This document shows positions 456 through 62,404 of a DNA stretch of 64,000 bases, piece by piece. The notes under the pieces were generated by a model, which saw nothing but the letters and a program-made list of their open reading frames with translations, did no database searches and was not told the origin of the DNA. The position numbers and the translations under genes are program-made. The stretch's first letter is position 1. Every line of letters begins with the position of its first letter. The DNA lies in the IMG/VR virus record IMGVR_UViG_3300028833_000101, positions 1 to 64,000 of that record. One strand, 5' to 3'. The stretch comes from a virus. Its lineage: Duplodnaviria; Caudoviricetes.

Positions 456-1943
456 ATGAAGATTAAGAAATTAGTTGAATCCAAATTAATTGAAGCTGAA
501 GATAAGATTGATGCTACAGGTTCAGTTCAAGAAATTGCTGATGATATTCAAGACCAAGTTGATGATTTAACTAACGGTGAACTTGAAATTTCTGATGAAG
601 CGGCTAAAAAAGCTGCCGAAGATACTTCTGTTGTTGCGGATGTTGTAAATGCAGATGAAGCAGTTATTGTTATCGATGACAATGACTGGAGTGATGTTAA
701 AATTACAAATAGACTTTATAGAACACTAGATAGAGCTTTTGCTGCTGCCAGCACAAATATGGGCAAGCACAAGATTAAAGCTGGTGCTAACGTTCTTGTT
801 GAAGGTCTTCCAGGTTCAGGTAAAACTGCTATTGTTGAAGCTTGGTGTAAAATGAATGGCTTAACGCTTGTTGCCTTAAATGCTACTGACCCAAAGATTG
901 AGTCTGCTATTAATGGTATTCCACTTCGTAATATGTCTGTTGAAGATTCTACAGAACTTACATATGCATATGCAGTTGATGATAAAAATTTAGGCTTGTT
1001 AATCAATGAAAAACATCCAGAATTAGCAGGAAAATGTGTTTTATTCGTCGATGAATTAAACAGACAAAAAACAGAACAATTGAGACGTCCATTTATGTCT
1101 CTCTTTAATGAAAAAAGAAATGCAAGTGGCACGCTAGATTTTTCTAAAAACTTATTGTTCTGTGTTGTTGCTATTAACCCATTTGGTAATGACTTCCATG
1201 ATAAAGGCGTTAGTGAATTAAATGCTGCTGAAAAAGACAGATTTGCCCGCCAACAATACAGCTTTGACTCAAACATTGATGACGCTCTTCAATTCTGGAA
1301 TTGGTACAGATCAAAAGAATTATTAGAGTTAGGCATTATTTCTCCTGGAAGTGCTGCCTCTGCAAATCATGGTGGTTGGGTTGGACCAACAAAAGAATTA
1401 GATGAAGACGATTTAATGCACGCTAAGAGAGTTCTCAAAGGTGCTGCATTAGCTCTTTATATTTTAAATAATGTTCAAAAATCAAGAGAAACTGAAGTAT
1501 TTACTACAAGAAGAGATACTGATAAAGCTTATAGAAGTGGTGATTACCGCTATACTACAAGCAGAGGCTTATTTGATGGTATTTTTGATAGCACATTTGG
1601 TGATGATAAATCACCTGTTAAAGACTTCTTAGACTGGGTTGATGAAGAAAGCCATTATACTCCAGAAAAAGTTAGAATGTTCCATGACATTTTAGATTCT
1701 TATGTTATGGACGTTAAGGGATTATTTGCTGCTTATAATCTTGATAAAACTCCAAAAGAAATTAAAGCAGAGTTAGATGGAACTGCTGCTCCAAAAGCTG
1801 ATACTACTGTTGATAGCACTGACGATGAAATTGAGGATGATGATGTCATGTTTGGTGCTGATGATATTAGTGGAGTTAGCAAAGCAAGCACAGACGATTT
1901 AAGCAAAGACGATGTTGATTCTATCATGGGTAGCTGGTTATAA
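456..1943 (+). CDS. MoxR-like AAA+ ATPase (AAA_5 type), 495 aa
   Basis: Walker A GLPGSGKT, Walker B LFVDELNR, sensor AINP, Arg finger AEKDRF; RBS AAGGAG; followed by peptidase and vWA genes. Confidence 0.85.
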   Translation: MKIKKLVESKLIEAEDKIDATGSVQEIADDIQDQVDDLTNGELEISDEAAKKAAEDTSVVADVVNADEAVIVIDDNDWSDVKITNRLYRTLDRAFAAASTNMGKHKIKAGANVLVEGLPGSGKTAIVEAWCKMNGLTLVALNATDPKIESAINGIPLRNMSVEDSTELTYAYAVDDKNLGLLINEKHPELAGKCVLFVDELNRQKTEQLRRPFMSLFNEKRNASGTLDFSKNLLFCVVAINPFGNDFHDKGVSELNAAEKDRFARQQYSFDSNIDDALQFWNWYRSKELLELGIISPGSAASANHGGWVGPTKELDEDDLMHAKRVLKGAALALYILNNVQKSRETEVFTTRRDTDKAYRSGDYRYTTSRGLFDGIFDSTFGDDKSPVKDFLDWVDEESHYTPEKVRMFHDILDSYVMDVKGLFAAYNLDKTPKEIKAELDGTAAPKADTTVDSTDDEIEDDDVMFGADDISGVSKASTDDLSKDDVDSIMGSWL

Positions 1944-1946
1944 TCT

Positions 1947-3095
1947 ATGAAAATTCTAAAAGAAGCAGGAAAAGAAATACAAACTGATACTGAAAAAAGG
2001 CTAAAAAAGAAACTTTTAGCCCTTTTGCGTAATGATGGAAAAGGCCATCATCATGCTAAGTATGCAGCAAGATTAGAAGATTTTATTTTAAAAATCGTTC
2101 CAAGATCAGAGGAACCTGGTTTTGTTGCAGCAGTTAGCTGGGAAGATATTACTGTTTATATTAGTGATGGTTTTGTTACTAATGACCCAGATATTTTCTA
2201 TCAGTTAAGTGTTTTAATGCGCCATGAATTAGCTCATTATTTATTACAACATGATATTAGAATGGCTAAGTATATCGCAGATAAATATGGTGATGAATAT
2301 GCTAAGCATTTTAAATTAAGTAACTTACTACATCAAACCTGCAATATTGTTATGGACTTAGAAATTTCTAACCAAGTTTATATGCAAGATGATGATAAGG
2401 ATGTAGTTAGAAATCTTACTGATGGTGTTAGATTTTTGCCTGGTTTAGTTACAGACGATATCGAAGCAAAATGAACAAAAATGACACTTATTGAAATGTA
2501 TGATGCAGTTGAAAAAGAAATAGATAGCATTAAGCAAAGTATTATAGCTAAATGGGATGCTTTAGATATGTCTAAGCTTGTAAATCCATTTGATAAAAAA
2601 TCATTTATTAAAAATCATATTATAAATGAATTAAATGTATATACAGATACAAAACACCCAACTAATTTCTTTGGCACTTTAGCTCAATTTATTAAGGGTA
2701 GAGCACTATACCATTTTGCTCCATTTGACACACAAAATAGTATTTGTATGATTAAATATTCATCTCTTCCAGACTTGTACCAAGATATCATCGTAGATAT
2801 TGCAGAAGAGTTTAATAGACAAAATGGCTATACAAGACAGGAAATTCGTGATAAAGTAACTGAAATTGCTAAAACAAGCCCAGTCGAGACTTATATCCTA
2901 AAGGGCAAAAATGGCAATGAAGTTACTAAGATATATAATCCAGAAGAAAAATTCCTTGCAATTGATGCATTAAAAGCAGTTCTTCCAGAATTAGATGAAT
3001 ATGATGCTTGGTATGCAAAGGTTCAAAAGGTTTTCTCTGATAGTAAGTACACTGACGCCGATAGACAAAAAGTCTTGGATGCGCTTAATAAATAA
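1947..3095 (+). CDS. HExxH zinc metallopeptidase-like protein (DUF2201 N-terminal type), 382 aa, one internal TGA=Trp
   Basis: MRHELAHYLLQH followed by CNIVMDLEISN. ORFs 1947..2474 and 2481..3095 join in frame through TGA at 2472. Confidence 0.75.
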
Positions 3096-3106
3096 GGAGG
3101 CGTCAA

Positions 3107-5320
3107 ATGAAATCAATTAGAGTAAAATCGTATAATAAATTAATAGAAAACATTATTACTGAAGATAGCATTAAATTAGACGGTAATACAAGTGATTTTA
3201 AAGGAAAATTAAAAAAACGTATTACTGATGCAATTAGACTTGCAAAAGAATGTAGAATTGCTGCTAAAAAAGCAAGAGATGCTGGTAATGATGAAGATGC
3301 TGATTGGTTAGAAAAACGTGCAGAAGATTATGAAACCGCTGCTAGAAATTGAAACCAAGATGCTCTTGATGCTGAAGAAGATTCATCAACTGACAGCAAA
3401 CAAGATGATACTAATAAAGAACCAAGCCAATCAGAAGTAGCACAAGATGCTGCGAATGCTGCTAAGCGTGCTGCAAGAGATGCACAAGATGCTGCTAATG
3501 AAGCTCAAAAAGCAGCAGAAAAATTAGCTGATGCTGGACAAGATGCAAGTGCTGCTAAAGCTGCTGCAGATAAAGCTCAAGAAAAAGCTAATGAAGCTAA
3601 ACAAGCCGCACAAGAAGCACAAGAACATGCAGATGAAGCAAGTAAGGCAGAAGCTGCTGGAGATAAAGATAAAGCTAAGGCAGAAGCTCAAGCTGCAGAA
3701 GATGCTCAAAAGAAAGCAGAGCAAGCCGCAAGTGAAGCAGGTAAAGCTGCTGAATCTGTAAATCAAAAGACCGCTTCTGAAAGAGCACAAGATGCTGCTG
3801 ATGCTGCTGAAGAAGCTGCTAAAAATGCTCAAGCAAAAGCTGATGCTGCCCAAAAGAAAGCTGATGACTTAAAGGCCGAAGGTAAGGATGCCAGTGAGGC
3901 TCAAGCTGAAGCGGATAAAGCAAAAGAAAAAGCAGAACAAGCTAAGAAAGCTGCTGAAGAGGCTAAAGACCATGCAGAAAAAGCTGAAAAAGCTGAAAAA
4001 TCTGGTGATACAGATACAGCTAATTCTGAAGCGGATAAAGCAGAAGCTGCTGCTGAAAGTGCTAAACAATCTGCAAGTAGCTCATCAGATAGCAGTGAAA
4101 GTAGCTCTGATAGTTCAGAGGACAGCTCTGACTCTGATAGTGACTCTGATAGCGACTCTGATAGTGATAGTTCTTCAAAATCTAAATCCAAAGGAAAAAG
4201 TAATTCAAGTAGTAAATCAGATGATAAATCTGATGCAAGTGAATCTGAGGGAGATTCTGATGATGATTCAGATGATGAAAGCCAATCTGATGATGCTCCA
4301 ATTAAAGACCCATTTGCAGATGAAGAAGATATTCCAAGTATGCCAAGTATGGGGCAACAAGGACAAGAACCAAGAGACCCAACTGTGGATGAAATTATTA
4401 AACAATTAGGTAAACTTGAAGGTGAAGCAAAACGTGGAGCTATTGCAGGTTTAACTGATTTAATAAATAAAAATAAAAATGAAAGTTTAACTGAAGCTTT
4501 TAGTAAAGGTATTCGTGAGTTCTCTGATGAAGAATGGGACGACCTAAACGATGAAACTATTGATAGAATCAATAAGGTTAAAAAAATTACCACCATTGAT
4601 GATGTTGAAGGAAGAAAAGCAAAGGTTAAAAGTTGAGCAGATAATCAAGCTGCTCGTCAAGAGCTCTCTGACGAAGAAAGCCAAAATGCTCAACACGATG
4701 TATTACAACGCCGTGCCAAAGAACAAGAATTAGATAAATATAATAACTTGTCTGGAATAAAAGACTTTGAAATTGACTTTGAAGGCTGCATAAGAGACCA
4801 AGTTGAAATGGTCATGCAAGATTATCTAACATATGATGAAATTAATCCAGAATATGAATTAGAAGATGTTATTATGAAAGCAGAAGTTCAAAGAATGATC
4901 CCAGATGAAGCTATTCCTACAATTGCTGTGTTCTTTGATAAATCTGGTTCATGCTCTAGGGCTATTCCAACACTTAACAATGCTATTGCAACAGTTAAAC
5001 AAAAATATGTTGATACTGGCATGTGTAAATTGGATTTATATTATTTTGGTGATAGAGTAGCTTATAATGATATTAATGCTCGTGTAGGTGGCTCTACAAT
5101 GGCTTGGCCACACATTATTGAAACTATTAGACGTGGTGATTATAACAATGTTATTGTTATGTCTGATGATGATATTGGAAGCCAAAATAATAATGGTGAA
5201 AGTTATACTGTTACTGGCTGCGTGTGGTGGCTATGAGTTAATGGCAATAGAGCCCCAAAATGCGTAAAAGAATTACGTGGTATGCAACATAACTTTGAAT
5301 GCGAAATTAGCGCATATTAA
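3107..5320 (+). CDS. vWA (MIDAS) domain protein with long Ala/Lys/Glu coiled-coil and Ser/Asp linker, 737 aa
   Basis: One frame through TGAs at 3350, 4634 and 5234 to TAA 5318-5320. MIDAS FFDKSGSC ... GGST ... VMSDDD; RBS AAGGAGG. Confidence 0.8.
4075..4300 (+). repeat. Ser/Asp low-complexity tract (DSDSDSDSDSDS) inside the vWA gene
   Basis: Tandem gac/gat-tct/agt codons, e.g. gactctgatagtgactctgatagcgactctgatagt at about 4130-4170. Confidence 0.8.
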
Positions 5321-6162: not shown

Positions 6163-9100
6163 ATGGCAAAAAAGATTGAAATTAATGAAAATTGGGAACC
6201 AGTTGAAGTAGAAGATTTAGATAATCTATTTATTGTTGTCTTTAAACACGGCAGTTTTGACCAAGGTTATGTTGAAGCTTTTGATACAGACGATGTTTTA
6301 ATGCAATCTGCTTATGACAGCTTAGCAAATCAATATAATGACTGTGGCTGCGATGAACTAACAAAAATCTATTTAATTAAAGTTCCAAATACTGAACAAA
6401 CAGTCAATATGTGTAATACGGGATTATTTAATGGTAATTGCTGCGACCCTCATGTCATTGAAGCAACCAAAGATTTATTCAATAGAGCTGACTGTGAACA
6501 TCTTTCTTGCTGGGAAGGCTGCGGTTTAACTGAGGCTAAAAAGAAGAAAAAACCATATTCTTCTGCTTATTGTGGTTTCACTGATCCTGAATTAAATATC
6601 AAACACTTTAATAAATGTATGGGCACTGATGGTCTCCAAAATCCAGATGCATCACATTTAATCGTTGGCGATACTTTACCAAATGCACCAGTTGCTGATG
6701 CTGGAAGTTCCGATGGAGCAAGTGATGCAAGTAGTTCTGCTGGAGAAGGCGGAGCTATGGGTGAAAGTTTAACTGAAGCCAACGAAGAAAGTTTAGAAGA
6801 TAAAATTAGGGCTGTCATTGCTCATAAAGAAACAGATGATTGGCACGATGGAAAAGCTTATCTTTTTGAAGTTAGTGATGAGTCTAAAAATTCTGATAAT
6901 GGTGATATTGATCCATTTTGAGTTGAAAAATTTGATGATGATGAAGTTGACTTCAGTAAATTAAAAGTATATGATAGAACTCCAGAAGAAAAAGAAGATG
7001 GCAAATATATTGCTACTTTTATGATTTCTGGCGGTAAAAATGGCTCTGGTGAATGGACTGATTATTTAAGTCAATTAGCAGATGCTTTCAAAGCAATTAA
7101 AGAGAAAACAGGTGCTGAACCTTTACTTTATAAATTAGATACAGATATTTGTGATGATGTTTGGACTGGTTATGTTTTCTTATATGATCATGCAGATAAT
7201 GTTAAAGAAAGCTTAAATGAAGATTTAATTGTTGTTGAACCATTTGAAGCCGAAGAAAAAATTGAGGAAATTAAGAAACAAATTGAAGAAGCTAAAGATT
7301 GAAAAGTCCGCAAAAACCTATTAACTTTAATGAATATTTATTTATTCCAAACAGTTTATGATGCTGATCATCAAGATGAGACTGATTGCAATATCAATAA
7401 AGAAGAATGAGATGAATACTCTAAATGGAGTACTGAACAAGGCGAAAAACTTTTAAATGAACATCCAGAGCTTGAAAAAGAAAATGAAGAAAGAGAAGCT
7501 AAAATTGATGCTTCTGTAAAAGATGATGCTTCCGATGAAACCGAAGAACAAGAAGAAATAGAAGAAAATTTGACTGAAGCCCATTTAGATTATTCTACAC
7601 AATTATCTAAAATGAGACAATTAGAAGCAGGCACTCGTGGCTTTAATGCTTCAAATGTTAGCTTAGAAAAACTTCTATTTAATTACGATATTTGTATTTC
7701 TCATAATTTACCAAAAGCTAGAAAAGTAATGGAAGATGCTTTAAGAATGCACGGTTGGGACCAATATATTAAACCAACTAAAAAACAAGTCAAAATTTCA
7801 GACTATGATCGTATTTTAAAACCTGGTTATGTAAACATTGCTGCGGCTAAAACTGTTTTGGCAAATAAAGATAATGCACAACAACTTATTAAAGACTATG
7901 GAAACAACTTAGATGATTTACTTGTTATTTTAGTTATTGCACTTGGAATTAAAGAAGCTGCTTTAGCTGGAACTATTAAAGATCATATTATCAATAACTT
8001 CACAGTTACACTAGCTGAGTTAAAAGATTTCTTAAATAGATACTTTGCTAATCCAGCTGCTATATCATCTTTAAATCAAATTATTCACGATTGTAAAGAA
8101 AGTTTAGTAGAAGATGCTGGCTATTCTCATAAACTTGAAGATAAATTTGAGCTTCCTCCACAAATTAAATTATTAGACCAAAATAAAGTTGAAGATTTTA
8201 TTAAACAATTAGCACCAGAAGAATTATTTAGAGTTGGTTATGCTACTCCATTATATTTCTATTCTGAATTAGATGATAAATTTGATTTAGTTAAAGCTAC
8301 TGAAATGGAAGGCTATACTGGTTTAGATTATCGTGATGCCTCTGTCGATGCCGCAGACCACGATGAAAGAGTTGCTAATGCACAAAGACAAATTGATACA
8401 TATAAAGATGGGGCTTATGGGCATAAATTAAATACAGAAGGTGAAAAATTTAGTACTAACTATAGAGCAACTAATAAACTTGCATTAAACCCTGAAAAAT
8501 CTAATGAATATGTTGAATATGAATTAGATGCAGAAGGAAAACCAGTAAAAGATGCTGCTGGCAAACCAATTATTAAAACTAAAATAGATATGAATAAAAT
8601 TTTATTCTATCCAAGAGTTGGTTCTACTCCTATTACTCATTATTATATTGATTTCCATAATGGTCAAGGATTTAGACCAATTAGACGTGAAGTTTTAGTT
8701 GATACTTTATATAAATTTATCATGGAAGTTGAGAAAGCTAATGCTATGGGTGTTAGCAAAACCGATCTAATGTGAATACAAAAGAAAGGTTATGGCAATA
8801 TTAAGAAAGACTCTACTGGTGCAATTGAAGCATTCTATAAAGACCACCCAGAAAAATATGCAATTAGTATTTATAGAAAAGCAGAAGAATTAGGCATTCC
8901 TGCTGAAGAATATGCAAAAGAACATCCATTTAGCACACGTTGGTCTATGAGCGACTTTAGAAAGAAAGCCAAATCAATGTTTGATGCTGACGCTGCTACT
9001 ATTATGGCCCAAGATGCCTCAACAGTTAGTGATCAAGAGTTAGCCGCTACAAAAGGTGTTAATAGAACTGTAACAGGAATTGAGAATAAACCGCAAGTTA

Positions 9101-9597
9101 GAGCTTTATATTCCAACCAAGTTTATTGGCTTGATGGAAAACCAGGAAAGCTTGGTGCTCAACTTAAAGAGGGATTAGAAGAAAATATTGAACTTGATGA
9201 AGCAAAGCGTTATGTTAAACGTTATTATGTTAGACCTCTAAATATTTTCTGTGGAAATAAAGAAGATATTATTCAAGCTTTAATTAGAGCTGGAGATCAA
9301 AACTGCTCTGTCTATTCATTAAAGAATTTAACAAACCATGAAGATGTTCACTTATTACAACCAAGTGATATCATCTATTACTGAGATGACCATGTTTTAT
9401 ATGATAAGAATCATGTTCAAGTTATGGACTATGATTTATTTGTTAAACATGAAGAAGACCGTAAAAAAGTTGGTAACATTGATGCTGTTCCAGATGCAAC
9501 ATTTAGCGATATATATGACGATAGAGCTACAGAAGACGATTTAAAAGATAAAGATGTAATTGCTAACTATAAAGCATTAAATAAAATTACTAGATAA
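6163..9597 (+). CDS. 1144-aa multi-domain protein with domains separated by E-S/N-L-x-E linkers (candidate processed internal-head polyprotein)
   Basis: Track ORFs 6163, 7021, 7570 and 8947 share one frame, are joined only by TGA codons and end at TAA 9595-9597; RBS AAGGAG. Confidence 0.75.
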
Positions 9598-9610: not shown

Positions 9611-9859
9611 ATGGAAGATAAGAAACTTGTATTAGAAGAAATTGACAACCCATTTACATTAGAATTTGAATCTTACAATGCATATGGTGAAAAGCTAACT
9701 GAAGCAAAAGAAGAAGTTTGCTGCATTTGTGGTGAACCACTTGAAGGTTATGGAAACAATCCTGAACCATACAAACATGAAGGCAGATGCTGTGATGCTT
9801 GCAATTTAAAATTTGTAATTCCAGCAAGATTAGCCGAACTAAATAAACCAGAGGAATAA
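9611..9859 (+). CDS. Small zinc-finger protein (CxxC...CCxxC), 82 aa
   Basis: CCICGEPLEGYGNNPEP...RCCDAC; RBS AAGGAG. Confidence 0.75.
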   Translation: MEDKKLVLEEIDNPFTLEFESYNAYGEKLTEAKEEVCCICGEPLEGYGNNPEPYKHEGRCCDACNLKFVIPARLAELNKPEE

Positions 9860-10745: not shown

Positions 10746-13076
10746 ATGGCTGGATTTGATATCAAAAACTGTATTCCAACTGAAGAAGACTTTAGAGAAG
10801 TAGCTGAAGCAAAAGTCACTAATGATAAGAGCAGAGCTCTTGGTGGTTTTTCTTGTTTAGATGATGCTAATGCTCCTTATTATTATTTATTAGTTCGCAG
10901 ATTTTTTGCTTGTATGCTTTTAAAATGAACTGAGGCAGCAAAAGCCTGTGAAAGCCTATTAATTAATACAAAAGATAGCACTTATGATGCTGCTGCAATT
11001 AAACAACTTATTTCTTTAGTACAAGCAAATAAAGCTGATTTTATTGATAATTATAATAAATATAAAGGCTCGCAGGAAATTCAAGCACCAACTGTAACTT
11101 TTGGTAAAAAGAAAAATCATGAAATTACGCCAGCCGATCAAATAAGTTCTCGTGCTGGTGAAGTAAAAGTAATTACTCATGGTAAAACAAAAGATTTTTA
11201 TCGAATTGTTGCTTATGATATGCGCTATGGTGGTAGTGGAGCTAGACGCGGTTTAGTGTTTGGTAAAAAAGATGGCAACTTATATACTATTAAAATTCTT
11301 GGAAGCGACCAAATGACTGGCCTTCGTTTATATGATTCAGTATTATTTAAAACAATAAATGAAGCTAAAATGTTTATTGCAAATATTAATCACAGTAATA
11401 TAAATACTTCTTATGAAATTGATAGCCTTAGATATTGTATTTCAGATGAACCAATTAATACACAACATTATAATTGACAAACTCGTAGCTATGAAAATGT
11501 TGAAATTAATAGTCTAGATGAGGCAGTTCAAGTAAATACTATGTGCGGAAAGGCTTATATATTAAAAAAGAGTGAACAATGTAAAGAATCTTTGGAGATA
11601 GATAATATGAATGAAGCGATTGAAAAACATGATACACTAAATCCAAAATTATTCGAAAACAATTCTTTAAAGCCAGAAATTAGAAAAAAGGCTGAAGAAG
11701 TTGTTAATGAATTTTTGAGAATTTTAGCTGAAGATGAAGTTAGATTAGATGTTAGAGATGTTATTTTAACAGGCTCAAATGCAAGCTATAATTACACAGC
11801 TGACAGTGATGTTGATTTACATATCTTAGCTAATACAACTCAATTTGACGACCCAGAACAACTTCATAAAAAACTTTATAATTGTTATCGCAGAATTTTT
11901 GAAAGCAAATTTGATATTAGTTTCTACGGAATTCCAGTAGAAGTTTATGTTGAAACTGAAGATAACCCAGTTGTTAGTAATGGTATTTATTCTGTCATGT
12001 ATGACAAATGGGTAAAAGAACCAACTAAAGATTATGTTAAAGAAGTTGATCAAGAAGAAATTGCAAAATTTGCTAAACCATGAATTGCTAGAGCAAATGA
12101 AGTAATTAAAAAAGTTGATGATAACATGCCAGATGGTGAAGAAGAAATTGATAAATATTTAGAAGATATTTATGAAATGAGGCAACAAGGTATTTATAAT
12201 ACTGATGGCAGTGAATTCTCATCAGAAAATCTTGCATTTAAAGAAGTTAGAAATGCTGGTTTATTAGATAAATTAAAAGAGCTTAAAAATAAAGTTATTG
12301 AAAAACGTTTGTCTTTAGAAGAGGGCATTAAATACTTAGACGATGATCACGAATTTAAAGATTATGGAACTAGTGAAGCACATGAAACAGATGTAATTGA
12401 TATTCATAAAGCTAGCACATTCTCAACACAAGATTTATTAGATGGTTCAGTAGACGCTGCTTATGATGGCGTTGTATACGATATCGTTGAAATGACACCA
12501 ACCCAATACTTTGAATTATGCTCTAAAATTCAAGGCATGAAACCAGATGAAATTATCGATTTTATTGGTGCTGATGAAAGACAAATCACACATATTAAAG
12601 ATGTTATTCTAAAATATGGTAAGAAACTTCCACTTCCATATGTTAGCTTCAGTGACAATGCTGAAGTTAGTGGCCAAGAAGGCAGACACAGAATGTATGC
12701 TCTTGGTGAAATGTTTGGTTGGGATGAGGATTTCCCAGTAATGCTTATCCAAGATGCAAGCTCTAAGAAAACTCTTGGTGAATTATTGCATGAGTCTATT
12801 ACAGAGGATTTCTATTTAGATGAAAAAACAAGACGTGATTATGTAGTAAAAATTGCACAAATTGCGCATGATCAACCAATTGTTCATCCAAATGGTATAT
12901 TTGAGCTTCACAATATAAGTGAACAAGATGCAAACTTCATAATTCCAAATTTAAGACGTATGCCTTGAATTGAATATGTTTCTAAATCTGGTGGAAGATA
13001 TGATTATAGTAAAATGTCTTATCAAGGTATTCCTGCATTAAAACTTAATATAACTGGAAAAATTAAATTTAACTAA
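10746..13076 (+). CDS. 776-aa fusion: paralog domain + Pol-beta-superfamily nucleotidyltransferase + ParB/Srx-like domain
   Basis: Single frame through TGAs to TAA 13074-13076. NTase motif LTGSNASYNYTADSDVDLHI and PVEVYVE; ParB-like GQEGRHRMYAL. Possible internal start GGAG-N9-ATG at 11607. Confidence 0.75.
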
Positions 13077-19351: not shown

Positions 19352-21154
19352 ATGGACGCTAAAAACAGACAAGTGTTAGAAGCTTTACAAATGCAACCAT
19401 TATCTGAAGAAGAAAAAACCTCCCGTCATATTCTTGGTAGACTTTATGGACCTATTGCGACCTGTAAAGAAAAAACAAGAAATGGTCGTGGCTATAATAA
19501 AGAACTTTGGGAAAGAGCCCTTAGTGATGAAATCTTCAAAGAAAAACTTGCAACTAAAAGTTTATTCTTAGAATTAGGCCACCCAGCTGATAGAGAAGAA
19601 ACAGACATGACTTGTGTTTGTGCCTGTATCCCAGAAATGCCTAAAATTGTCAATGATGATTTATATGCTTATGTTGACATATTAGACACACCAAATGGCA
19701 AATTATTAAAAACACTTTGTGATTATGGCTTTGTTCCTGGTATCTCTTCAAGAGGTTCCGGTGATATTATGGCTAATGATGAAGTTGACCCTGAAACATT
19801 CTTCTTAGAAACATGGGACATCGTTCAACTTCCCGCTGTTAAAAAAGCAAGACTTGCAATGTGTGAAGGTTTTGATGGTAAAAAACCATTAAAAGCAGTA
19901 TTACAAGAAAGTTATGATGCTGCAGATGACAAAGATAAGAATGCCATTAAAGAAGCATTAGACAACTTAGATATTAAATTAACTGAAGATGTTGTTGAAG
20001 ACAATATTCCAGTTGAAGACCCAGAAGCTCCAATTGAAGAAACATTAGTTGAAGCTGAAGAATCTTCAGTAGAAGAAATTCCTGAAGAAGAAGTTGTTGA
20101 AGAACAACCAGCTGAAGATGAACCAAAAGCTGAAGAAGTTGAAGAAGCTCCTGAAGCACTAACAGTTGGTGCATTCGTTGATGAATTAAAAGATTATGAT
20201 AAAGAGCTTTCCTTAGAATGGAAACCAATTATAATTAATGATGTTGAATATCCAGTTGAAGCTGTTGTATTTGATAACAGTGAAGATGGAAAAATTATTG
20301 CTACAGTTAGTTATACTCTTCCTGAAGAAGAGAATACTATAAATGATGAAGAAGTTAGTTCTGATGAAGAACCTGCTACAGAAGAACAAGAAGTTCCTGC
20401 AGAAGAAGCTGGCGATGCCGGAGAAGATGAAGTAATTGAAAGTTTGAAAGAAGCAGTTCGTCAAAAAGACTTACTCGAAAATGAAGTCCGCGATCTTAAA
20501 AATCAAAAGACAGTCAGTGATACCGAAGTACAAGGTTTGAAAGAAGAGCTTGAGAAATACAAGAGCGGTTTCATGAGAGTTAGCGAACTTGCCTCAAAAT
20601 CAACAAAGCTTGAAAAAGAGAATCAATCTCTTACAGAGCAATTAAATCTTAAAGATACTGAAATCAAAGATTTAAAGGAAAAAGTTGAAAACCACAACAG
20701 TTTAACAGAAAGTATTAATGCTGATAAAGCAAAAGTTCAAGAGTTATCTGAAAAATTAGTTAAGGTTCAAGCCGAAGCTGAAGAAACAGAGAAATCCTTA
20801 AACGAAGCGCTTACAGAAAGTAGAAAGAAAGCTGCTGACAGAGCAAATCTTGCAAAGTCATACAAAGCTAAATATGATGCTGTTATTGAACGCTACCTTG
20901 CCAATAAAGCAAAAATGCTTGGTGTTAGACCATCAGATATTACTAGCAAACTTGCCGAAAGCTATTCGCTAGACGATATCGACAATGTTTGCAATGATCT
21001 TCTTGATGAAGGTCGCCCACAATTCGGTTTGGTTGGTGGTAATCCAAGAGTAAGAGTCAATGAGTCAGTCAGTAAAACTGAAAAGAAAGTTATTGATCCA
21101 GACAATGGCTACGAAATTGATGATGACTTACTTATCTTAGCCGGATTAAAATAA
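19352..21154 (+). CDS. Prohead protease (T4 gp21-like) fused to an acidic/coiled-coil scaffold region, 600 aa
   Basis: RNGRGY, ELGHP (catalytic His), GISSRGSG (catalytic Ser), WDIVQLPA; C-terminal coiled coil rich in LxE sites and ending ILAGLK. Confidence 0.88.
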   Translation: MDAKNRQVLEALQMQPLSEEEKTSRHILGRLYGPIATCKEKTRNGRGYNKELWERALSDEIFKEKLATKSLFLELGHPADREETDMTCVCACIPEMPKIVNDDLYAYVDILDTPNGKLLKTLCDYGFVPGISSRGSGDIMANDEVDPETFFLETWDIVQLPAVKKARLAMCEGFDGKKPLKAVLQESYDAADDKDKNAIKEALDNLDIKLTEDVVEDNIPVEDPEAPIEETLVEAEESSVEEIPEEEVVEEQPAEDEPKAEEVEEAPEALTVGAFVDELKDYDKELSLEWKPIIINDVEYPVEAVVFDNSEDGKIIATVSYTLPEEENTINDEEVSSDEEPATEEQEVPAEEAGDAGEDEVIESLKEAVRQKDLLENEVRDLKNQKTVSDTEVQGLKEELEKYKSGFMRVSELASKSTKLEKENQSLTEQLNLKDTEIKDLKEKVENHNSLTESINADKAKVQELSEKLVKVQAEAEETEKSLNEALTESRKKAADRANLAKSYKAKYDAVIERYLANKAKMLGVRPSDITSKLAESYSLDDIDNVCNDLLDEGRPQFGLVGGNPRVRVNESVSKTEKKVIDPDNGYEIDDDLLILAGLK

Positions 21155-21191: not shown

Positions 21192-22523
21192 ATGAGACAA
21201 AATTTACTTGAGACTTATAGTCGTCAATTAAAGGTCGCAGAAGCCTACGTTGCCAAAAACTTCGATGGCAAACAAATTTCTGCTAATACACAATTAACAA
21301 CTGCTGTCTTATTAGACAACACAAACAGATGGATGACAGAATCCATGAACACCCAAGCTACAGAACGTTCTGACTTAGGTGATTGGAAAAAATTCTGCTT
21401 AAACCTCACAAACATCGCTGTTCCATCATTAATCGCTAATGATTTAGTCATCGTTCACCCAATGACTTCTTACAGCGGCTCTGTTGCTTACTTACGTTAT
21501 GTTTCTAAAACTGACAAAGGCGACATCCACAAAGGATTCGAATTCAATAGTGTCTTCGGTCTTGGTGAACACAGCGAAGCAAGAACTGCTTTCACTTCCC
21601 AAGTTATCGTTGAAACTGCTGGTTCCGATGGTAAAGTTGCTCTTACCCCAATGGCTACAAACCGTTTCGGTAAAGAAGGCGAACACAAAGATGCTAAAGT
21701 CATCAAAGCTGATGGTTCTATCGAATATGTCACTGCTGAAAAATTAAAAGCTGGCGTTGAAGCTGGTGCTAAAGTTGCTTACTTCAGTGAAGAATTCCAA
21801 ATGGAACGCGTTCCTGCTCAAGACATTCCAACCATTGGTCCAAAAATGGAAAGAATCGCTCTTGTTGCTGAACCAAGACGTATCGCTGTCCGTTACGATC
21901 AAATCACTGCTTTCCAAGCAAAAACTGACTACGGCTTCTCACTCGATAAACAAATCGCTGAACAAGCTTGTGGTGAATTAGCATATGAAATCGACACTGA
22001 AATCGTCGACATGTTATACAAAGCCGCTTTTGCTCACAAAGATGCAGAAGGCAAACCAGTCGTTCTTGAATGGTCCAAGACTCTCCCAATCGGCGTTAGC
22101 AAATTCGAGCACTACAATGGCTTCTTAGAAGTTATTGAACAAGCTAAAGCTGTTATCTATAACAGAACAAAGAAATTCCATCCTAACTACATGGTCATCT
22201 CTGCAGACTGCTTACCAGTCTTAAGATTCGTCAATGGCTTCACAGCTGTTAAGAATGCTAAGATGAATGGACCTTACAAAGTTGGTGAATTAGATGGTTT
22301 ATCAATCTATGTCTCCCCAGCTCTTGAATCAGGTGAATTCTTCCTTGGTTTAAACGGTTCTGACATGATGTCCTCTGCTGGTGTCTACGCACCTTACATG
22401 GCAATTGTCCCAACTCAATTACTTGGAACACCTGACGGTGGTTTAGCACAAGGCTTCTCAACTTGGTATGCTAAAGCATTACTCAACGAGAACCTCTTAG
22501 TCGCTGGCCGTATCGTTGCCTAA
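21192..22523 (+). CDS. Major capsid protein (T4 gp23-like), 443 aa
   Basis: LIANDLVIVHPMTSYSG, ELAYEIDTEI, GVYAPYM motifs; follows protease; distinct high-expression codon bias; strong terminator behind it. Confidence 0.92.
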   Translation: MRQNLLETYSRQLKVAEAYVAKNFDGKQISANTQLTTAVLLDNTNRWMTESMNTQATERSDLGDWKKFCLNLTNIAVPSLIANDLVIVHPMTSYSGSVAYLRYVSKTDKGDIHKGFEFNSVFGLGEHSEARTAFTSQVIVETAGSDGKVALTPMATNRFGKEGEHKDAKVIKADGSIEYVTAEKLKAGVEAGAKVAYFSEEFQMERVPAQDIPTIGPKMERIALVAEPRRIAVRYDQITAFQAKTDYGFSLDKQIAEQACGELAYEIDTEIVDMLYKAAFAHKDAEGKPVVLEWSKTLPIGVSKFEHYNGFLEVIEQAKAVIYNRTKKFHPNYMVISADCLPVLRFVNGFTAVKNAKMNGPYKVGELDGLSIYVSPALESGEFFLGLNGSDMMSSAGVYAPYMAIVPTQLLGTPDGGLAQGFSTWYAKALLNENLLVAGRIVA

Positions 22524-26805: not shown

Positions 26806-29562
26806 ATGAAATTTATGGAAAAAGAATCAGTAAAAAAATTTGATCTTGAAGCCGCATTTAAAGCCTTAGATGAAATTGAAATTCCAGTTGCTGAAAAAGG
26901 CATTGCAGCTAATAGAGTAGATCTCAGAGAAAGATTCAATACTAAATCACATACAGAAATCTTAGTTGAAGATTACTATGATGTTAGTAGCTCTGAAGAT
27001 TTGGAAGAAGCTAAAGAAGAACGTGATGGAGAAGTTGCACAAGCTAAATTAGCACGCATTGAAAAAATTGTCGATTTAGATGCTGAAACTGCAGATGACT
27101 TACTTCCTTCATATGTTGGCAAAGTTATTATTCAATGCCCACAATGTATGACACTCTTCTACAAAAATCCTGAAGATATTGAAAAGTCTGAGGAAAACCC
27201 AGATGTTGTTAATATTAATGAAATTTGTCAACACTGTGGCAATTCATCTGGCTATAATTTAATTGGTAAAGTTGATTCAGTTGGTAATGATGAAGCTGAT
27301 AAATATGAAGAAGCTCCAGCAGAAGAAAATGAATTAGACCTAGACTTTGAAGAACCAACTGAAGAAGTCGACGCTGAAGGAACTGGTGATGGTGCTAAAG
27401 TTGATGAAGATGATTTAGATTTAGACCTTGATTTATCAGAAGTTCCAGAAGAAATCCCAGAAGAAACACCAGAAGAAAAGAATGAATCCTTAAATCATTC
27501 TGAAGCTGAAAGAGACGCAGAAGAAGATAGTGAACTTTTTACTGCTCACAAATCTGAAAATTTAACTCTTAATGAAAAAGCTGATACAAAAGCCTATTCA
27601 GTATTTTATAAAGACAAATGTGGCCATCAATTATTTACTGGCACTAAAGAAGAATGTGATACTTATGTAAAAGAGCATTCTGATGATAATATGGTAGTTA
27701 CTCATGGCGGTCTTGAAGTTGTTAACTTAGATGACGCTGGCGTCGATGCACCTGCATTACCAGAGAGCTTAAATAATTCTGAAGCTCAAAAAGATGCTGA
27801 AGAAGGTTCTGAACTTAAAACAGAAAATGAATCAGAAAATCTTACATTAAATGAAGAAGTTGATAAAGATTTAGATAAAAAATTAAAAGCTCATAATGAT
27901 TATATTGCTTATCTACAACAAATGATTAAGCAAGAAGAAGAAGCTTTAAAGAAAACTGATAATGAAGAAGTTAAAGCTGCTATTCAAAGACGTTTAGACG
28001 CATTTAATGCTGATTTAGAAGAAGCATTACCAGATGCAATTAAACCAGTTCCAGAGGTTGCTGAAGCTGGTTTAGCTGATACAGAACCAGCAGAAGAAAT
28101 TCCTGCTGAAGAGCCGACTGAGGTTCAGGCTGAAGAAGAGCCAAAAGAAGATGAAGCTCCTGTTGAAGAAGCTCTAACTGAAGAGACAGGAGAATGCAAA
28201 GTTGTTCTATCTGATAAACCAGAAAAAGAGGTTTTTACTGGAACTAAAGAAGAATGTGAACAAATTGTTGAGAAAAATAAAGAAACCAATACAGCAAAGG
28301 AACATGGCTTAGAAATCATTGAGCCTGCCATTGATGAAAGTTTAAATGCTTCTGATGCACAAAAAGAAGCTGCAGAGGGCTCTGAGCTTAAAACAGAAAA
28401 TGGTTCTGAAAATTTAACTCTCAATGAAGATGTAAATGCTGAAATTGATTCAATCATTGCTTCTTGGGATGTTAATGAAAACTTAAATGAAGAAGGTAAT
28501 TTAGATAAATTACTTGATAGCGATGAATTTAAAACCCCTGTTTCTGAAGAAGAAATTAATGCTGCAAGAGAAGATGCTAAAGAAGAAAGCTTAGAAGAAT
28601 GCGATAAGCAAAAACTTACTGAAGAGCCTGATCCAGAAGTTTCTGCAATCATAGACTCTTGGGAAGAAGCTCCTGTTGAAGAAGGTTATACTGGAAATCC
28701 AGCTGAAAGAACAACTCATTTAGAATATGAAGATAAAGACCCAACTGATGGTAAAGCTGTCCTTCCAGATAATATTGAAAAACAATTAACTGAAGGCGAA
28801 GAATGCAAAGATGGTGAATGCGACAAACCATTAGAAGAATGTGGTGAAAACTGTGAAAAATCTCTTAAAGAAGAAGATGAAGTTCCAGCTGAAGAAGAAA
28901 CTCTAGTAGATGAACCTGTTGAAAAGCCTGTTGAAGGTGAAGAAGCTGTTGAAGAAGAGCCAAAAGAAGAAGTTGAAGAAAAAACACCATTAGATGTTAT
29001 TAAAAATAAAGTTGATATTCATGGAGAAGAAGACACGCTTGTAATTGCTGAAAAAGGTCAATTAGATAATCCAGATGCTCCAAAAATTGAAGTTGAAGCA
29101 ACTGAAGAAGAAAAAGAAATCTTAGAACCTGAATTCCATGAAGAGACATCTGAAGAAACTCCTGTTGAAGAAGTTCCAACTGAAATTGAAGAACCAGAAT
29201 TTAATGAAGATGATATTGATGAATTAGATGAATGTTCTTTAAATAAACACATTGATGAATACTTACATGAGGTTTATTCTAATGTTAAATCTTATGAAAC
29301 AACTGGTTGTGAACTTAAAGAAGGCAAATTAGTTGTTGAAGGTAAAATTTCATTCAATAGTGGTAAAGAAAAATTAACAATGTTTGAATTCTTACCAGCT
29401 TATGGTGAAGGTAAATTATTCTTTGAAGGCTACAATAAAGACTTCTCCGATGAAAAAGCATTCACATTAAACTGCTCAATCAATGAGTCTAAAACACTTA
29501 TTACTGAAAGCTTCGGCTATAAGTATAAAATTAATGAAAACCTTGTTGAAGGCTTAAAATAA
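26806..29562 (+). CDS. Very acidic 918-aa protein with Zn ribbon and internal repeats (probable prohead core/internal protein)
   Basis: CPQC...CQHC; three 31-aa ESLN...ENLTLNE repeats; many LxE sites. Confidence 0.75.
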   Translation: MKFMEKESVKKFDLEAAFKALDEIEIPVAEKGIAANRVDLRERFNTKSHTEILVEDYYDVSSSEDLEEAKEERDGEVAQAKLARIEKIVDLDAETADDLLPSYVGKVIIQCPQCMTLFYKNPEDIEKSEENPDVVNINEICQHCGNSSGYNLIGKVDSVGNDEADKYEEAPAEENELDLDFEEPTEEVDAEGTGDGAKVDEDDLDLDLDLSEVPEEIPEETPEEKNESLNHSEAERDAEEDSELFTAHKSENLTLNEKADTKAYSVFYKDKCGHQLFTGTKEECDTYVKEHSDDNMVVTHGGLEVVNLDDAGVDAPALPESLNNSEAQKDAEEGSELKTENESENLTLNEEVDKDLDKKLKAHNDYIAYLQQMIKQEEEALKKTDNEEVKAAIQRRLDAFNADLEEALPDAIKPVPEVAEAGLADTEPAEEIPAEEPTEVQAEEEPKEDEAPVEEALTEETGECKVVLSDKPEKEVFTGTKEECEQIVEKNKETNTAKEHGLEIIEPAIDESLNASDAQKEAAEGSELKTENGSENLTLNEDVNAEIDSIIASWDVNENLNEEGNLDKLLDSDEFKTPVSEEEINAAREDAKEESLEECDKQKLTEEPDPEVSAIIDSWEEAPVEEGYTGNPAERTTHLEYEDKDPTDGKAVLPDNIEKQLTEGEECKDGECDKPLEECGENCEKSLKEEDEVPAEEETLVDEPVEKPVEGEEAVEEEPKEEVEEKTPLDVIKNKVDIHGEEDTLVIAEKGQLDNPDAPKIEVEATEEEKEILEPEFHEETSEETPVEEVPTEIEEPEFNEDDIDELDECSLNKHIDEYLHEVYSNVKSYETTGCELKEGKLVVEGKISFNSGKEKLTMFEFLPAYGEGKLFFEGYNKDFSDEKAFTLNCSINESKTLITESFGYKYKINENLVEGLK
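27484..28428 (+). repeat. Three dispersed 93-bp repeats (27484-27576, 27763-27855, 28336-28428)
   Basis: ESLNHSEAERDAEEDSELFTAHKSENLTLNE / ESLNNSEAQKDAEEGSELKTENESENLTLNE / ESLNASDAQKEAAEGSELKTENGSENLTLNE. Confidence 0.85.
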
Positions 29563-59551: not shown

Positions 59552-62404
59552 ATGACCGAATTTAAATATTGTGTATATTGTGAAGAAGAGCCAGCCATCT
59601 GTTTTGAAAGTGAGGCCGAAGCTATGAAATTTGCTCGTGAGGATACAAGTATGTATAATAGTGTTAGAGTTGAAAAATCTGAAATAGACGAAGATGGTGA
59701 TGTCTTAAATACTGAAGTTCTTTGAACTGCTAGTGGTAATAATGTTCCAGAAAAAGAAATAGTTCCTGAGAATGAATTTGAGACAGAATTTCCAGAATCT
59801 GATATTGCTAATATTGACACTTCAGATGATGTAGATTATGATGAACTTGCAAGACAGTATGCAGAAGACCCAGCTGATTGAATTGATGATAATAAATTAA
59901 TTAAAGAAGCTGTTGATGTTCTAGAAGAAAATGAAGATGAAGTTGAATGCAAAGTTTGTTTTGAGCTTGGTCCTAAAGCTGAAATGAAAAAATTAGATAT
60001 TGGTTATGTTTGTCCAAAATGTGCACAAGAATTACAATCACATCAAGGCACAAATTTAGATTTACTTGATAATGACCCATTTAGTCTAGATTATGAAGAC
60101 CCAAGAGACTTTGATGAACCTGAAGAGGAAGAAGTCAAAGAAGAACCTGTCAATGGCACTGAGATGAGAAAACATGAAAAAGCAATCGAAGAAGAGCTAA
60201 AAGTTATTATAGATTTTAGTGAATATAAACCTTGGTCTGGTGCTGTTGATACTTATGAATTAATAAAAGATGCTGATAAATTAGATGAACTTGAAGCTTA
60301 TCTTGAAGAATGTTACCCAGAGGGAGTTACCGCCGGAACAATTAATGATATTCTTTGGTTTGACAGTGAAGAAATTTTAAAATATCTTGGACTTGGCGAC
60401 GTTGAAGAAGATGAAGAAGAAGTTGATGAATCATTAAATGAAGAAGAAACTTTTAAGCAAGGTTTTGATTCTTATAATGCTTATGGAGAAAAAGTCGAAG
60501 AAAATTTAGAAGAAAAAGTTGACTTACCAGCATTTGATAGTGATGTAAAAGTTGGTGATAAAATTAGAATTATTCATTTAGAAGGTGAAGATAATTCTTA
60601 TGATGGAAAAGAAGGTGAAGTCACTAATATCGATTCTATTGGACAACTTCATGGAACTTGAGGCGGATTAGCTGTTATCCCAGGTGTTGATCAATTTGAA
60701 GCTGTTATTGAAGAGCATGTTAATGATAGACCAGCTGATATTGAAAGCGACCAAGTTTTACAAGGTGCTGATAATGCAGTAGTTGATTGCGATGTTGCAA
60801 AAGTAATTGCACATAGTGAAGATGAAAAACCATTAGACTGCAAAATGGAAAAGCCTGCTTTAGAAGAACCATTAGCTGGTGAAGAAGTTAAACCTGACCT
60901 AGTTGAAGCTAAAAAAGATGATGAGTTACCTGTTGACCCAGAAGCTGCTAAACTTGAAGTTCATACAATGTTAAATGATTTGGTGGCAGATGAAATCGAA
61001 GCTATCAATGGTTATGAAGAAGCTAAGAAAGAAATTCTTGATACTCCAATTGCTCATAAAGATAATATTTTAGATACTATCGACCACGTTGAAGATGAAG
61101 AAAAAGAACATGTTGATGAATTAATTAGCGCAACAACTGAAATTCCATTTGATAAAGAAGAAGCTCCAGCTCCAGTAGTTGAAGAACCTGTAGTTAAAGA
61201 AGAACCACTTGATCAAGAATTTCCAGAAGTTGATGAAAACTTAGAAGAAGAAGTATCGGAAGATAAATTTGCTGAGGTAGAAGCCTATTTAAAAAATGCA
61301 GATAGAGGCTCTATCGATTTTGAATGGGAGACCGATGAAGATATCTGTAATGGCTCAATTCTTTGAAATGAAAAGAAAGAAAGATTTGAAGCTGGCTTAA
61401 GCATTTATCATGCCAGTGAAGATAATAATGCAGAATACCCAGAAATGCACACTGATGAAGAAGATGCATCTGCTAAAACTATTAAAGAGCTATATAAATT
61501 ATTAGTCGATGATTATGGTGAAGAATTTAAAAACGCTTTTGAAGATGCAATAAATCATAAAGAGTTAACTGAAGAAAAAGCCAAACCAGAAGGCAACAAA
61601 GTTCTTAGCTATAATAAAGCATTGGCTATCGCAAATTCTGAAGGAAAACCTGTTATTTATGGTTATACAAACACTTCTTATAATGGAAAATACTTTGAAG
61701 TAGACCCAATTGTTTGTAATAGTGTAAGTGATGAAACTAAAAAATTTAAACAACAATATAAGAGCGCTGGAACAGTCTATGTAGCATACCCAGGCAAAAG
61801 CTTTATTGAAAGCTTAAGAGAAGCTGCCAATGTAGACTATGTTGAATATATGCATTCTTATTGCAATGCTCTTGAACCACATATGGACGAGCTTAAAAAA
61901 ATTGAAGATGTCGAAGAACTTAAAAAAGCAATCTTAGATATTGTCAATAAAGACCCAGATGTTAATACTACTGAAAAGAAAAATAAATTTGTCTGGCTAA
62001 TTAAGAATAAAAAATGGGGTTCTACTAAGAGTATTATGAAATACCTAGAAAAAGCAATGAATAAAGCTAAAGGTATTGAAGTTAAAGTTGATGACAATGG
62101 TGAGCTTATTAAAGAAGATATTGAAGAAGCTGACCCAAAAGAAACACAATTTGTTTTCACACCAGAAGAACAAGCAGAATATAATTGTGACGAAGATGGT
62201 AACTGTGAAGATGGCTATGACCAATTATGCCATTGTGGTTGGTGTGGTGAAGTATTCCCTACAAGTGAAATGCGCCATGAAGTTGACTTTGGCTGAATTT
62301 GTTCTAGATGTGAAGACGAATTAAAATCACATGGTGGTCCACTTACATTTATTGAAGAAGCAGTCGAAAAGAAAGACCCTAAAGATGCTACTAAAGAAGC
62401 TTAA
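59552..62404 (+). CDS. 950-aa multi-domain acidic protein: two Zn ribbons, DUF4314-like domain and ferritin-like helical pair, separated by LxE linkers
   Basis: RBS AAGGAG and ATG 59552; track ORFs 59984, 60845 and 61445 in the same frame, joined by TGAs; ends TAA 62402-62404. Confidence 0.75.

Follow-up and report, generated by a model that had tools for sequence, protein, structure and literature searches.

In bacteriophage T4, the prohead protease gp21 cuts after L/I-X-E, and the core proteins are cut into several pieces, which leave the head (PMC9026906). Cargo is loaded through a 10-residue capsid-targeting sequence (CTS) that ends in a site of the same type (PMC9026906), and the idea has been published that the CTS permits the loading of diverse proteins in T4-like phages (PMC9026906, PMC9958956). 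The protease itself is activated by self-removal of nine N-terminal residues (PMC9958956). The gp21-type protease of SPN3US cuts after A-x-E, with a preference for Val at P4 and Ser at P1′ (PMC10052503). Here, a stretch of 64,000 nucleotides (the window; positions 1 to 64,000 of IMG/VR record IMGVR_UViG_3300028833_000101; Duplodnaviria, Caudoviricetes) from a large, uncultured T4-like phage was analysed, which carries a gene for a protein of 1144 residues, hereafter the precursor, in which short motifs resembling gp21 sites separate a series of segments.

A first interpretation based on the DNA letters (the sequence-only reading) had described the precursor as a string of unrelated-looking segments joined by near-identical linkers, which the prohead protease would cut into separate effector enzymes. 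The coordinates that it assigned to the linkers (6523, 6763, 7207, 7564, 8098 and 9169–9201) and to the open reading frame (ORF) are all right, the 1144-residue ORF existing only when TGA is read as Trp. The facts that it cited on cleavage by T4 gp21 and on the capsid-targeting peptide are correct (PMC9026906). The dependence of the ORF on TGA as Trp, the double nature of the linker as a tandem site and the shared leader element had escaped it. From the evidence set out below, the precursor is almost certainly a modular protein delimited by linkers and shuffled by cassettes. It is also, with fair probability, a head-internal precursor whose linkers are cut inside the prohead by the S77 protease of the phage.

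Modular architecture of the precursor

AlphaFold models were obtained for residues 1–650 (mean predicted local distance difference test score, pLDDT, of 78.7) and 641–1144 (mean pLDDT of 81.0). Confident domains span residues 21–120, 208–345, 356–455, 474–645, ~651–923 and ~1017–1087. Low-confidence stretches are found at residues 124–144, 156–207, 346–355, 455–473, 641–650, 924–941 and 1005–1016. The five strict linkers, together with GLTE and ELDE, are located within stretches of low-pLDDT coil, or at their edges, between domains with pLDDT >90. The prediction that domain boundaries would coincide with linkers thus holds at every linker. The linkers make up 13.5% of the residues, yet they hold 10 of the 23 hydrophobic-x-Glu sites (p = 4e-4). 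On these models, the precursor is predicted to consist of at least six independently folding modules and a conserved basic leader (Table 1).

This distribution bears on the possibility that the precursor is a scaffold or core assembly factor, degraded at many sites and expelled like T4 gp22, gp67 and gp68, with no cargo kept or injected. Fragments of T4 core proteins do exit the head after cleavage (PMC9026906), and the linkers share an acid-rich composition with the scaffold region of the protein encoded at 19352. The modules, however, are compact, confidently folded and highly variable, and their cassettes turn over fast, which is atypical of an essential scaffold and typical of accessory or conflict cargo. 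Moreover, the hydrophobic-x-Glu sites concentrate in the linkers instead of being spread over the domains. A role restricted to assembly is considered quite unlikely.

Sequence and distribution of the linker

The motif E[SNG]LxE is present five times in the precursor, where 0.12 occurrences are expected, and none of 2000 shuffles reached five. It is found 16 times in 43 proteins of the window (2.3 expected) and 178 times in 72 homologs of the precursor (7.5 expected). When gapped pentamers were counted blindly in 205 family proteins, ESL.E ranked first, with 59 non-redundant contexts versus 4 expected, and ENL.E second. For the bare tripeptide [LI]xE, the enrichment in the window proteins is only mild (296 versus 250 expected). 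The signal sits in the extended motif.

A profile was drawn from 114 non-redundant contexts, in which Glu at P5, Leu at P3 and Glu at P1 are set by the search pattern. P7 is Val, Leu, Ile or Met in 64 of the 114 contexts, Ser predominates at P4, and Ala, Asp, Gly or Ser occupies P1′. The sequence upstream is frequently acidic or rich in Gly and Ser. Since P7 is hydrophobic and P1′ is small, the linker reads as a tandem pair of T4-type hydrophobic-x-Glu units, with a small residue after each. The small residues at P1′ resemble the small-P1′ preference of the SPN3US protease (PMC10052503).

The motif is unevenly distributed along the window. After normalisation for composition, it is enriched 12.5-fold in the block preceding the terminase (6 versus 0.48 expected) and 16-fold in the block following the tail genes (5 versus 0.30 expected). 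The adaptor and a 918-residue protein together contain three occurrences (0.52 expected, 5.8-fold), all three within the 918-residue protein. The neck, tail, baseplate and fibre proteins, which total 9,653 residues, have a single one for 0.67 expected, that is, the background. The enrichment in head or cargo proteins and not in tail proteins, a test suggested in the sequence-only reading, therefore withstands normalisation. Individual examples that it gave fared differently. The linker noted in the vWA-neighbour protein is present (Table 1), and the protein encoded at 59552 is confirmed as well, with four motifs. No strict motif was found in the fusion encoded at 10746 or in the ART-SWIM protein, for which linkers had also been cited.

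Table 1 Position of the precursor gene, its modules and linkers, and other features of the window
Feature	Position	Strand	Remarks
Whole precursor gene	6163..9597	+	1144 aa with TGA = Trp; in-frame TGA at aa 253, 380, 416, 871, 1074
Module A	6163..6522	+	aa 1–120; confident alpha/beta domain; N-terminal in 65/66 family proteins with module A
G-L-T-E site	6523..6534	+	aa 121–124, then AKKKKK; kept in full-length homologs
Leader element 'a'	6535..6762	+	aa 125–200; candidate capsid-targeting element
Linker 1, ESLTE	6763..6777	+	aa 201–205; within low-pLDDT 156–207
Module B	6778..7206	+	aa 206–348; confident alpha/beta domain; found also within otherwise unrelated proteins
Linker 2, ESLNE	7207..7221	+	aa 349–353; within low-pLDDT 346–355; kept in homologs of 50–94% identity
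Module C	7222..7563	+	aa 354–467; helical bundle
Linker 3, ENLTE	7564..7578	+	aa 468–472; within low-pLDDT 455–473; cassette insertion site in P0002, P0018
Module D	7579..8097	+	aa 473–645; all-alpha domain
Linker 4, ESLVE	8098..8112	+	aa 646–650; low-pLDDT boundary in both AlphaFold models
Module E	8113..9168	+	aa 651–1002; large mixed domain; extra motif-free soft spot at aa 924–941
Linker 5, EGLEE-NI-ELDE	9169..9201	+	aa 1003–1013; overlaps low-pLDDT 1005–1016
Module F	9202..9594	+	aa 1014–1144; most widespread cassette; any position in other proteins; also opens genes as M-AKRY
Zinc-ribbon gene	9611..9859	+	82 aa; Cys-rich (CCICGE...GYGNNP...CCDACN...KFVI); after YGEKLTE↓A
ESLTE	4481..4495	+	In 737-aa protein (gene 3107–5320), aa 459
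S77 (T4 gp21-type) prohead protease	19352..21154	+	Fused to Glu-rich scaffold-like tail; one ESLKE
Major capsid protein propeptide junction M-T-E	21333..21341	+	aa 48–50, then Ser; just before Gp23 domain
918-aa protein	26806..29562	+	21% Glu; no TGA; between adaptor and neck genes
Second multi-linker protein	59552..62404	+	950 aa; 4 strict motifs; downstream of tail fibre genes, outside head block

Shuffling of cassettes among related phages

Comparison of the precursor with the 72 homologs by BLAST yielded 186 internal breakpoints, 109 of which fall within 12 residues of a linker, where 11% would be expected. In full-length homologs with 50–94% identity, the linker motif is kept and its flanks have diverged. 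Extra whole cassettes are placed precisely at linkers, with the motif on each side. For example, a cassette beginning with GCWGMP is found at the 468 linker in homolog P0018 and at the 1003 linker in homolog P0002. At least 45 architectures, including permuted orders (A-x-F-x-D), were counted across 203 family proteins. The shuffling of domains at linkers in related phages, which the sequence-only reading had suggested looking for, is thus seen, in the form of insertion, deletion, permutation and splitting. In several relatives, homology blocks begin at q924–950 of the precursor, and residues 943–1003 often move as a unit with module F.

Module starts were examined with module F only, as gene calling with code 11 may split genes at TGA and produce short homologs that appear 'free-standing'. 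The start of module F in family proteins ranges in position from 0 to 91% of the protein length. On the DNA, this start (AKRY) could be located in 33 related loci, and [L/I]-x-E directly precedes it in every one of them. Genes that open with module F begin either with M-AKRY, which corresponds to the predicted P1′ residue or new N-terminus, or with a minimal leader, for example MTNLTE or MKNLNE. At the C-terminus of module F, the alignment of relatives shows a conserved Y-x-D-R-(L/M/A)-T-(E/D) (window ~9517–9534), with Asp instead of Glu in several relatives. This element may be a C-terminal cleavage site. In T4, Asp in place of Glu at the cleavage position blocks processing.

The zinc-ribbon cassette that follows the precursor is a separate gene here, and in many relatives it is fused behind module F as a C-terminal module. 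A gene fission or fusion has therefore taken place at a linker. An F-x-S-Y-N-A-Y-G-E-K element is found upstream of the zinc-ribbon cassette and is present too in the protein encoded at 59552, around residues 305–315.

Prohead protease and putative maturation site of the major capsid protein

Profile searches matched the portal to PF07230 (E = 1e-32), the protease to PF03420 (E = 9.4e-11; 42 bits versus a cut-off of 27) and the major capsid protein (MCP) to the gp23-type family PF07068 (E = 7e-31). In the alignment of the protease with T4 gp21 (5JBL), the GHP and SSRG motifs, which we take to bear the catalytic His and Ser, are in register. The PF03420 match and this alignment agree with the earlier designation of the gene at 19352 as the prohead protease and place it in the S77, gp21-type family. 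The sequence QVLE↓A at residues 7–11 of the protease (nt 19373–19381) parallels the nine-residue self-cleavage of T4 gp21 (PMC9958956). The tail of this protein, about 450 residues long with 15% Glu, contains 34 hydrophobic-x-Glu sites versus 21 expected. From its sequence, the product looks like a protease-scaffold fusion open to self-digestion.

The propeptide junction of the MCP, assigned by position and conservation, is N-R-W-[M/L]-T-E followed by Ser or Ala in 19 distinct relatives, and the remotest ones have S-M-R-E↓S or W-I-S-E↓S. The ten residues after the junction vary and carry indels among relatives. Because the junction is hydrophobic-x-Glu followed by Ser or Ala in all relatives examined, the core of the linker corresponds to the site where the protease of this clade is expected to mature the MCP.

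It could also be that the linkers are processed by another protease or outside the capsid, either by a host enzyme or by a protein of 382 residues with a HELAH (HExxH) sequence at residue 93, whose gene (1947–3095) is two genes upstream of that of the precursor. Zincin-type peptidases have been proposed as processors of polyvalent proteins by Iyer et al. 2017 (PMC5512222), and the linkers would then fit that model of a metallopeptidase embedded in, or associated with, its substrate. The HELAH protein, however, matches no peptidase family or solved structure, whereas gp21-type prohead proteases are documented to cut characteristically after the Glu of hydrophobic-x-Glu, and the MCP junction has the same site. 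The involvement of another enzyme is deemed very unlikely.

Leader element and N-terminal peptides

The leader 'a' consists of the Lys patch AKKKKK, a short helix NIKHFNKCMGT and a disordered tract of Ser, Gly and Asp that ends with GESLTE. It is present in 54 of the 205 family proteins. In 30 of these 54, it is found at the extreme N-terminus, behind a tiny peptide ending with hydrophobic-x-Glu (MILDE, MIINE, MDNFLTE or MMIE) that has the same format as the T4 CTS. The leader would likely be an address for the acidic prohead core.

A hydrophobic-x-Glu site is present in the first 16 residues of 11 of 15 candidate cargo proteins, versus 4.4 expected (p = 5e-4), the cargo set being defined by genome position and hence not fully independent. 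The same count for the tail genes is 4 of 19, versus 3.35 expected. The N-terminal leaders that had been noticed in the candidate cargo genes are thus enriched. At 456–5320 of the window, the genes for an AAA+ (MoxR-like) ATPase, the 382-residue HELAH protein and a 737-residue protein all begin with MK...hydrophobic-x-Glu, and their arrangement is kept in loci L001 and L002.

Weighing the processing of the linkers

Several observations speak against a cargo precursor processed by the prohead protease. For the Ser at P4, AGY codons account for 20 of 24 sites in the window and loci L001–L004, and for 22 of 28 sites in a further, partly overlapping set of loci, the genome-wide background being 43%. 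The conservation of the linkers could be partly historical or serve recombination. The motif E-x-L-x-E lies within −35 to +8 residues for just 54% of the BLAST-mapped module starts, and one domain boundary within module E (residues 924–941, window 8932–8985) has no motif, the sole such stretch. The N-terminus of the precursor (MAKKIEINE...) contains no clear T4-like CTS, and the possible site sits on predicted β-strands. The specificity of the 19352 protease is deduced from homology and from the MCP junction. Finally, no module matches a known enzyme, family or fold in any of the sequence and profile searches or in the fold searches of the two model halves.

These searches covered several resources. 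The precursor has no match in Pfam and PHROGs, with no similarity seen to the T4 internal proteins (IPs) or Alt, and no match by tblastn against cultured phages. Foldseek searches of the PDB with each half returned nothing at E ≤ 0.001, and sequence searches of the PDB were uninformative too. VIA-align gave only small β-barrels (Z ~6) and generic three-helix bundles (Z ~9), which are within the stated noise of the tool, and BFVD only two uncharacterised phage proteins (E ~1e-4). The profile of module F retrieved nothing from the PDB, and a protein atlas search with homolog P0120 gave no usable match. The fold searches were run on the two halves of the precursor, and remote homology could escape them. 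The neighbouring genes yielded only a sub-threshold nucleotidyltransferase (NTase) match and an AAA+ domain. The separate effector enzymes announced in the sequence-only reading are not recognisable in the precursor by Pfam, PHROGs, PDB, Foldseek, VIA-align or BFVD, and the NTase of the neighbourhood is the sub-threshold one.

The codons at P4 speak for a different explanation, in which the linkers are uncleaved joints between domains that have spread with the cassettes, the shared DNA GAA-AGY-TTA-NNN-GAA aiding recombination, and the precursor is one long polyvalent protein, packaged or not. The alternatives to Ser at P4, Asn (AAY) and Gly (GGY), are each one transition away from AGY. Because of this and of the AGY bias, common descent is suggested: all linkers would derive from one ancestral joint and travel with the cassettes. 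Shuffling takes place precisely at the linkers, and the N4 virion RNA polymerase and some polyvalent proteins are delivered uncut (PMC5512222).

Other features do not agree with uncleaved joints. The Leu codons of the motif (TTA, CTT, TTG and CTA) are used at close to the background frequencies, and the P2 codon is unconstrained. This points to the amino-acid pattern, and not the DNA alone, as what selection keeps, and it leaves at most 9 nucleotides of unbroken DNA identity, too short for homologous recombination. The same tripeptide with a small P1′ residue is found at the MCP junction and at the N-terminus of the protease, where recombination is irrelevant. Where module F opens a gene, the gene starts exactly at the predicted P1′, and multi-domain tail proteins are devoid of the motif. 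The codon analysis disfavours a pure recombination joint, and linkers that are never cut are regarded as unlikely.

Proposed mechanism

According to the favoured reading of a head-internal precursor, the protein would co-assemble into the prohead core, where the leader 'a', through its Lys patch and short helix, and possibly module A would bind the very acidic scaffold. Once activated, the S77 protease would cut after the Glu of each exposed linker, and it would treat the MCP junction and its own N-terminus in the same way. About seven pieces would be released, of 14 (A), 8 (a), 17 (B), 14 (C), 20 (D), 41 (E) and 16 kDa (F). The folded pieces would remain with the DNA and would probably exit with it at infection. 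The linker would probably have two uses, one as the cleavage site and the other as the standard joint for acquiring cassettes, a dual role that fits best with the codons.

It is tentatively proposed, at somewhat less than even odds, that T4-like jumbo phages from gut and rumen use a plug-and-play loading of the capsid. A portable leader (Lys patch and NI..FNK.MGT helix) and a tandem protease-site linker used as a joint would allow one precursor to deliver a changing set of separate proteins into the host.

If this is true, the capsid-maturation protease gains a second role, that of freeing multiple cargo proteins from one modular precursor, and double-stranded DNA phages would have a polyprotein strategy for cargo. 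The occurrence of hydrophobic-x-Glu-Ser-Leu-x-Glu followed by a small residue between domains would become a rule for finding packaged proteins, otherwise invisible, in uncultured phages. The set of fast-turnover domains that match no fold would provide promising candidates for factors of early host takeover or anti-defence. The arrangement would also offer a natural template for bringing several foreign proteins into T4-type capsids.

Reading frame and genomic setting

The window has a G+C content of 32.5%, with genes on the plus strand. With translation table 11, the frame 6163–9597 is interrupted by five internal stops, every one of which is TGA. With TGA read as Trp (code 4), the plus strand displays tightly packed long ORFs, and this frame becomes a single ORF. 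Residues 253, 298, 871 and 1074 are encoded by TGA in one phage and by TGG in a relative, and remoter relatives have Tyr there. From this exchange, it is concluded that TGA is a sense Trp codon in the precursor gene. The reading with table 11 is ruled out by the five TGA stops, by the packing of ORFs under code 4 only and by the TGA/TGG exchange. That TGA codons mark segment boundaries is ruled out as well, as all five are within confident AlphaFold domains and none at linkers.

The Trp codons of the precursor gene, five TGA and nine TGG, resemble those of the late virion block. In the 104.7-kb contig, genes past ~77 kb almost never have TGA. ARAGORN detected no suppressor tRNA in the window or in the whole contig, where there is no tRNA gene at all. 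From the sequence, a suppressor tRNA must be encoded in the part of the genome that is missing, or be supplied by the host.

The precursor gene is 5 kb upstream of terL (at 14538) and the portal gene, and 11.6 kb upstream of the MCP gene, which starts at 21192. The tail block is marked by the adaptor, the sheath and two fibres with S74 chaperone domains. The relatives are uncultured phages of 200–235 kb that have the homologous gene at the same place, ~10–12 kb upstream of the MCP gene. The nearest MCPs from cultured phages are those of Bacillus phages HSE3 and SP-15 and Listeria phage LIS04, with ~30% identity. The precursor gene thus lies among the late or virion genes, and it is probably expressed late.

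Other proteins with linkers

In the protein encoded at 59552, ESLNE at residue 293 overlaps the end of a phrog_5149 domain (221–300), and ENLEE at residue 317 precedes a DUF4314 domain (333–385). In the 918-residue protein, one of the three strict motifs (ENLVE-GLK) is three residues off the C-terminus, and 50 hydrophobic-x-Glu sites are present for 37 expected. This protein may be a core- or scaffold-like substrate.

Comparison with known systems

A literature search returned no published description of a cargo precursor made of shuffled cassettes parted by a standard prohead-protease site. Among its nearest known counterparts are IPI, IPII, IPIII and Alt of T4, which share with the present system a T4-type head, an S77 protease and sites of the type hydrophobic-x-Glu followed by a small residue (PMC9026906, PMC9958956). 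They likewise have short N-terminal peptides ending in such a site, as do family members here, and are expressed late, from genes beside the head genes. They showed no sequence similarity to the precursor in Pfam and PHROGs, and they differ in being encoded by separate small genes, each with its own propeptide of 7–19 residues. Here, unlike in T4, unrelated modules are concatenated behind one leader, with a standardised tandem site between them at which they are shuffled.

The ejection and inner-body proteins of phiKZ, 201phi2-1 and SPN3US are likewise associated with a gp21-related protease, with several x-x-Glu cuts per substrate and a small residue at P1′ (PMC10052503, PMC5694885). Their propeptides of 111–254 residues are comparable to module A and leader 'a' taken together (205 residues) (PMC10052503, PMC5694885). 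In these giant phages, however, cleavage takes place at A-x-E or S/A/G-x-E, and a single propeptide is removed or broken up to yield one mature protein (PMC10052503, PMC5694885). In the precursor, the sites part several equal folded modules, and the architecture varies among close relatives.

The precursor also resembles the polyvalent proteins found in phages and conjugative elements, which according to Iyer et al. 2017 (PMC5512222) are mosaics of many unrelated domains on one polypeptide, 2–15 of them compared with at least six modules here, encoded among late or virion genes. The release of domains by proteolysis was proposed in that text, and the analogy with RNA-virus polyproteins was drawn. 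Of the hallmark domains that it describes (MPTase, ART, ParB, helicase, methylase and others), none was detected in the precursor by the family and fold searches. The processor described there is an embedded zincin peptidase, whereas none was recognised in the precursor, the linker of which matches the site of the prohead protease. The word 'linker' is absent from the text of PMC5512222, and conserved cleavage-site linkers do not figure in those of its passages on 'cleav', 'processed' or 'prohead protease' that were consulted.

As in polyproteins made by eukaryotic RNA viruses, concatenated units would be freed at short conserved sites by a virus-encoded protease. Unlike them, the precursor belongs to a double-stranded DNA phage with gene-by-gene expression, the capsid-maturation protease would act in trans within the prohead, and the arrangement would serve the loading of cargo and not the economy of expression.

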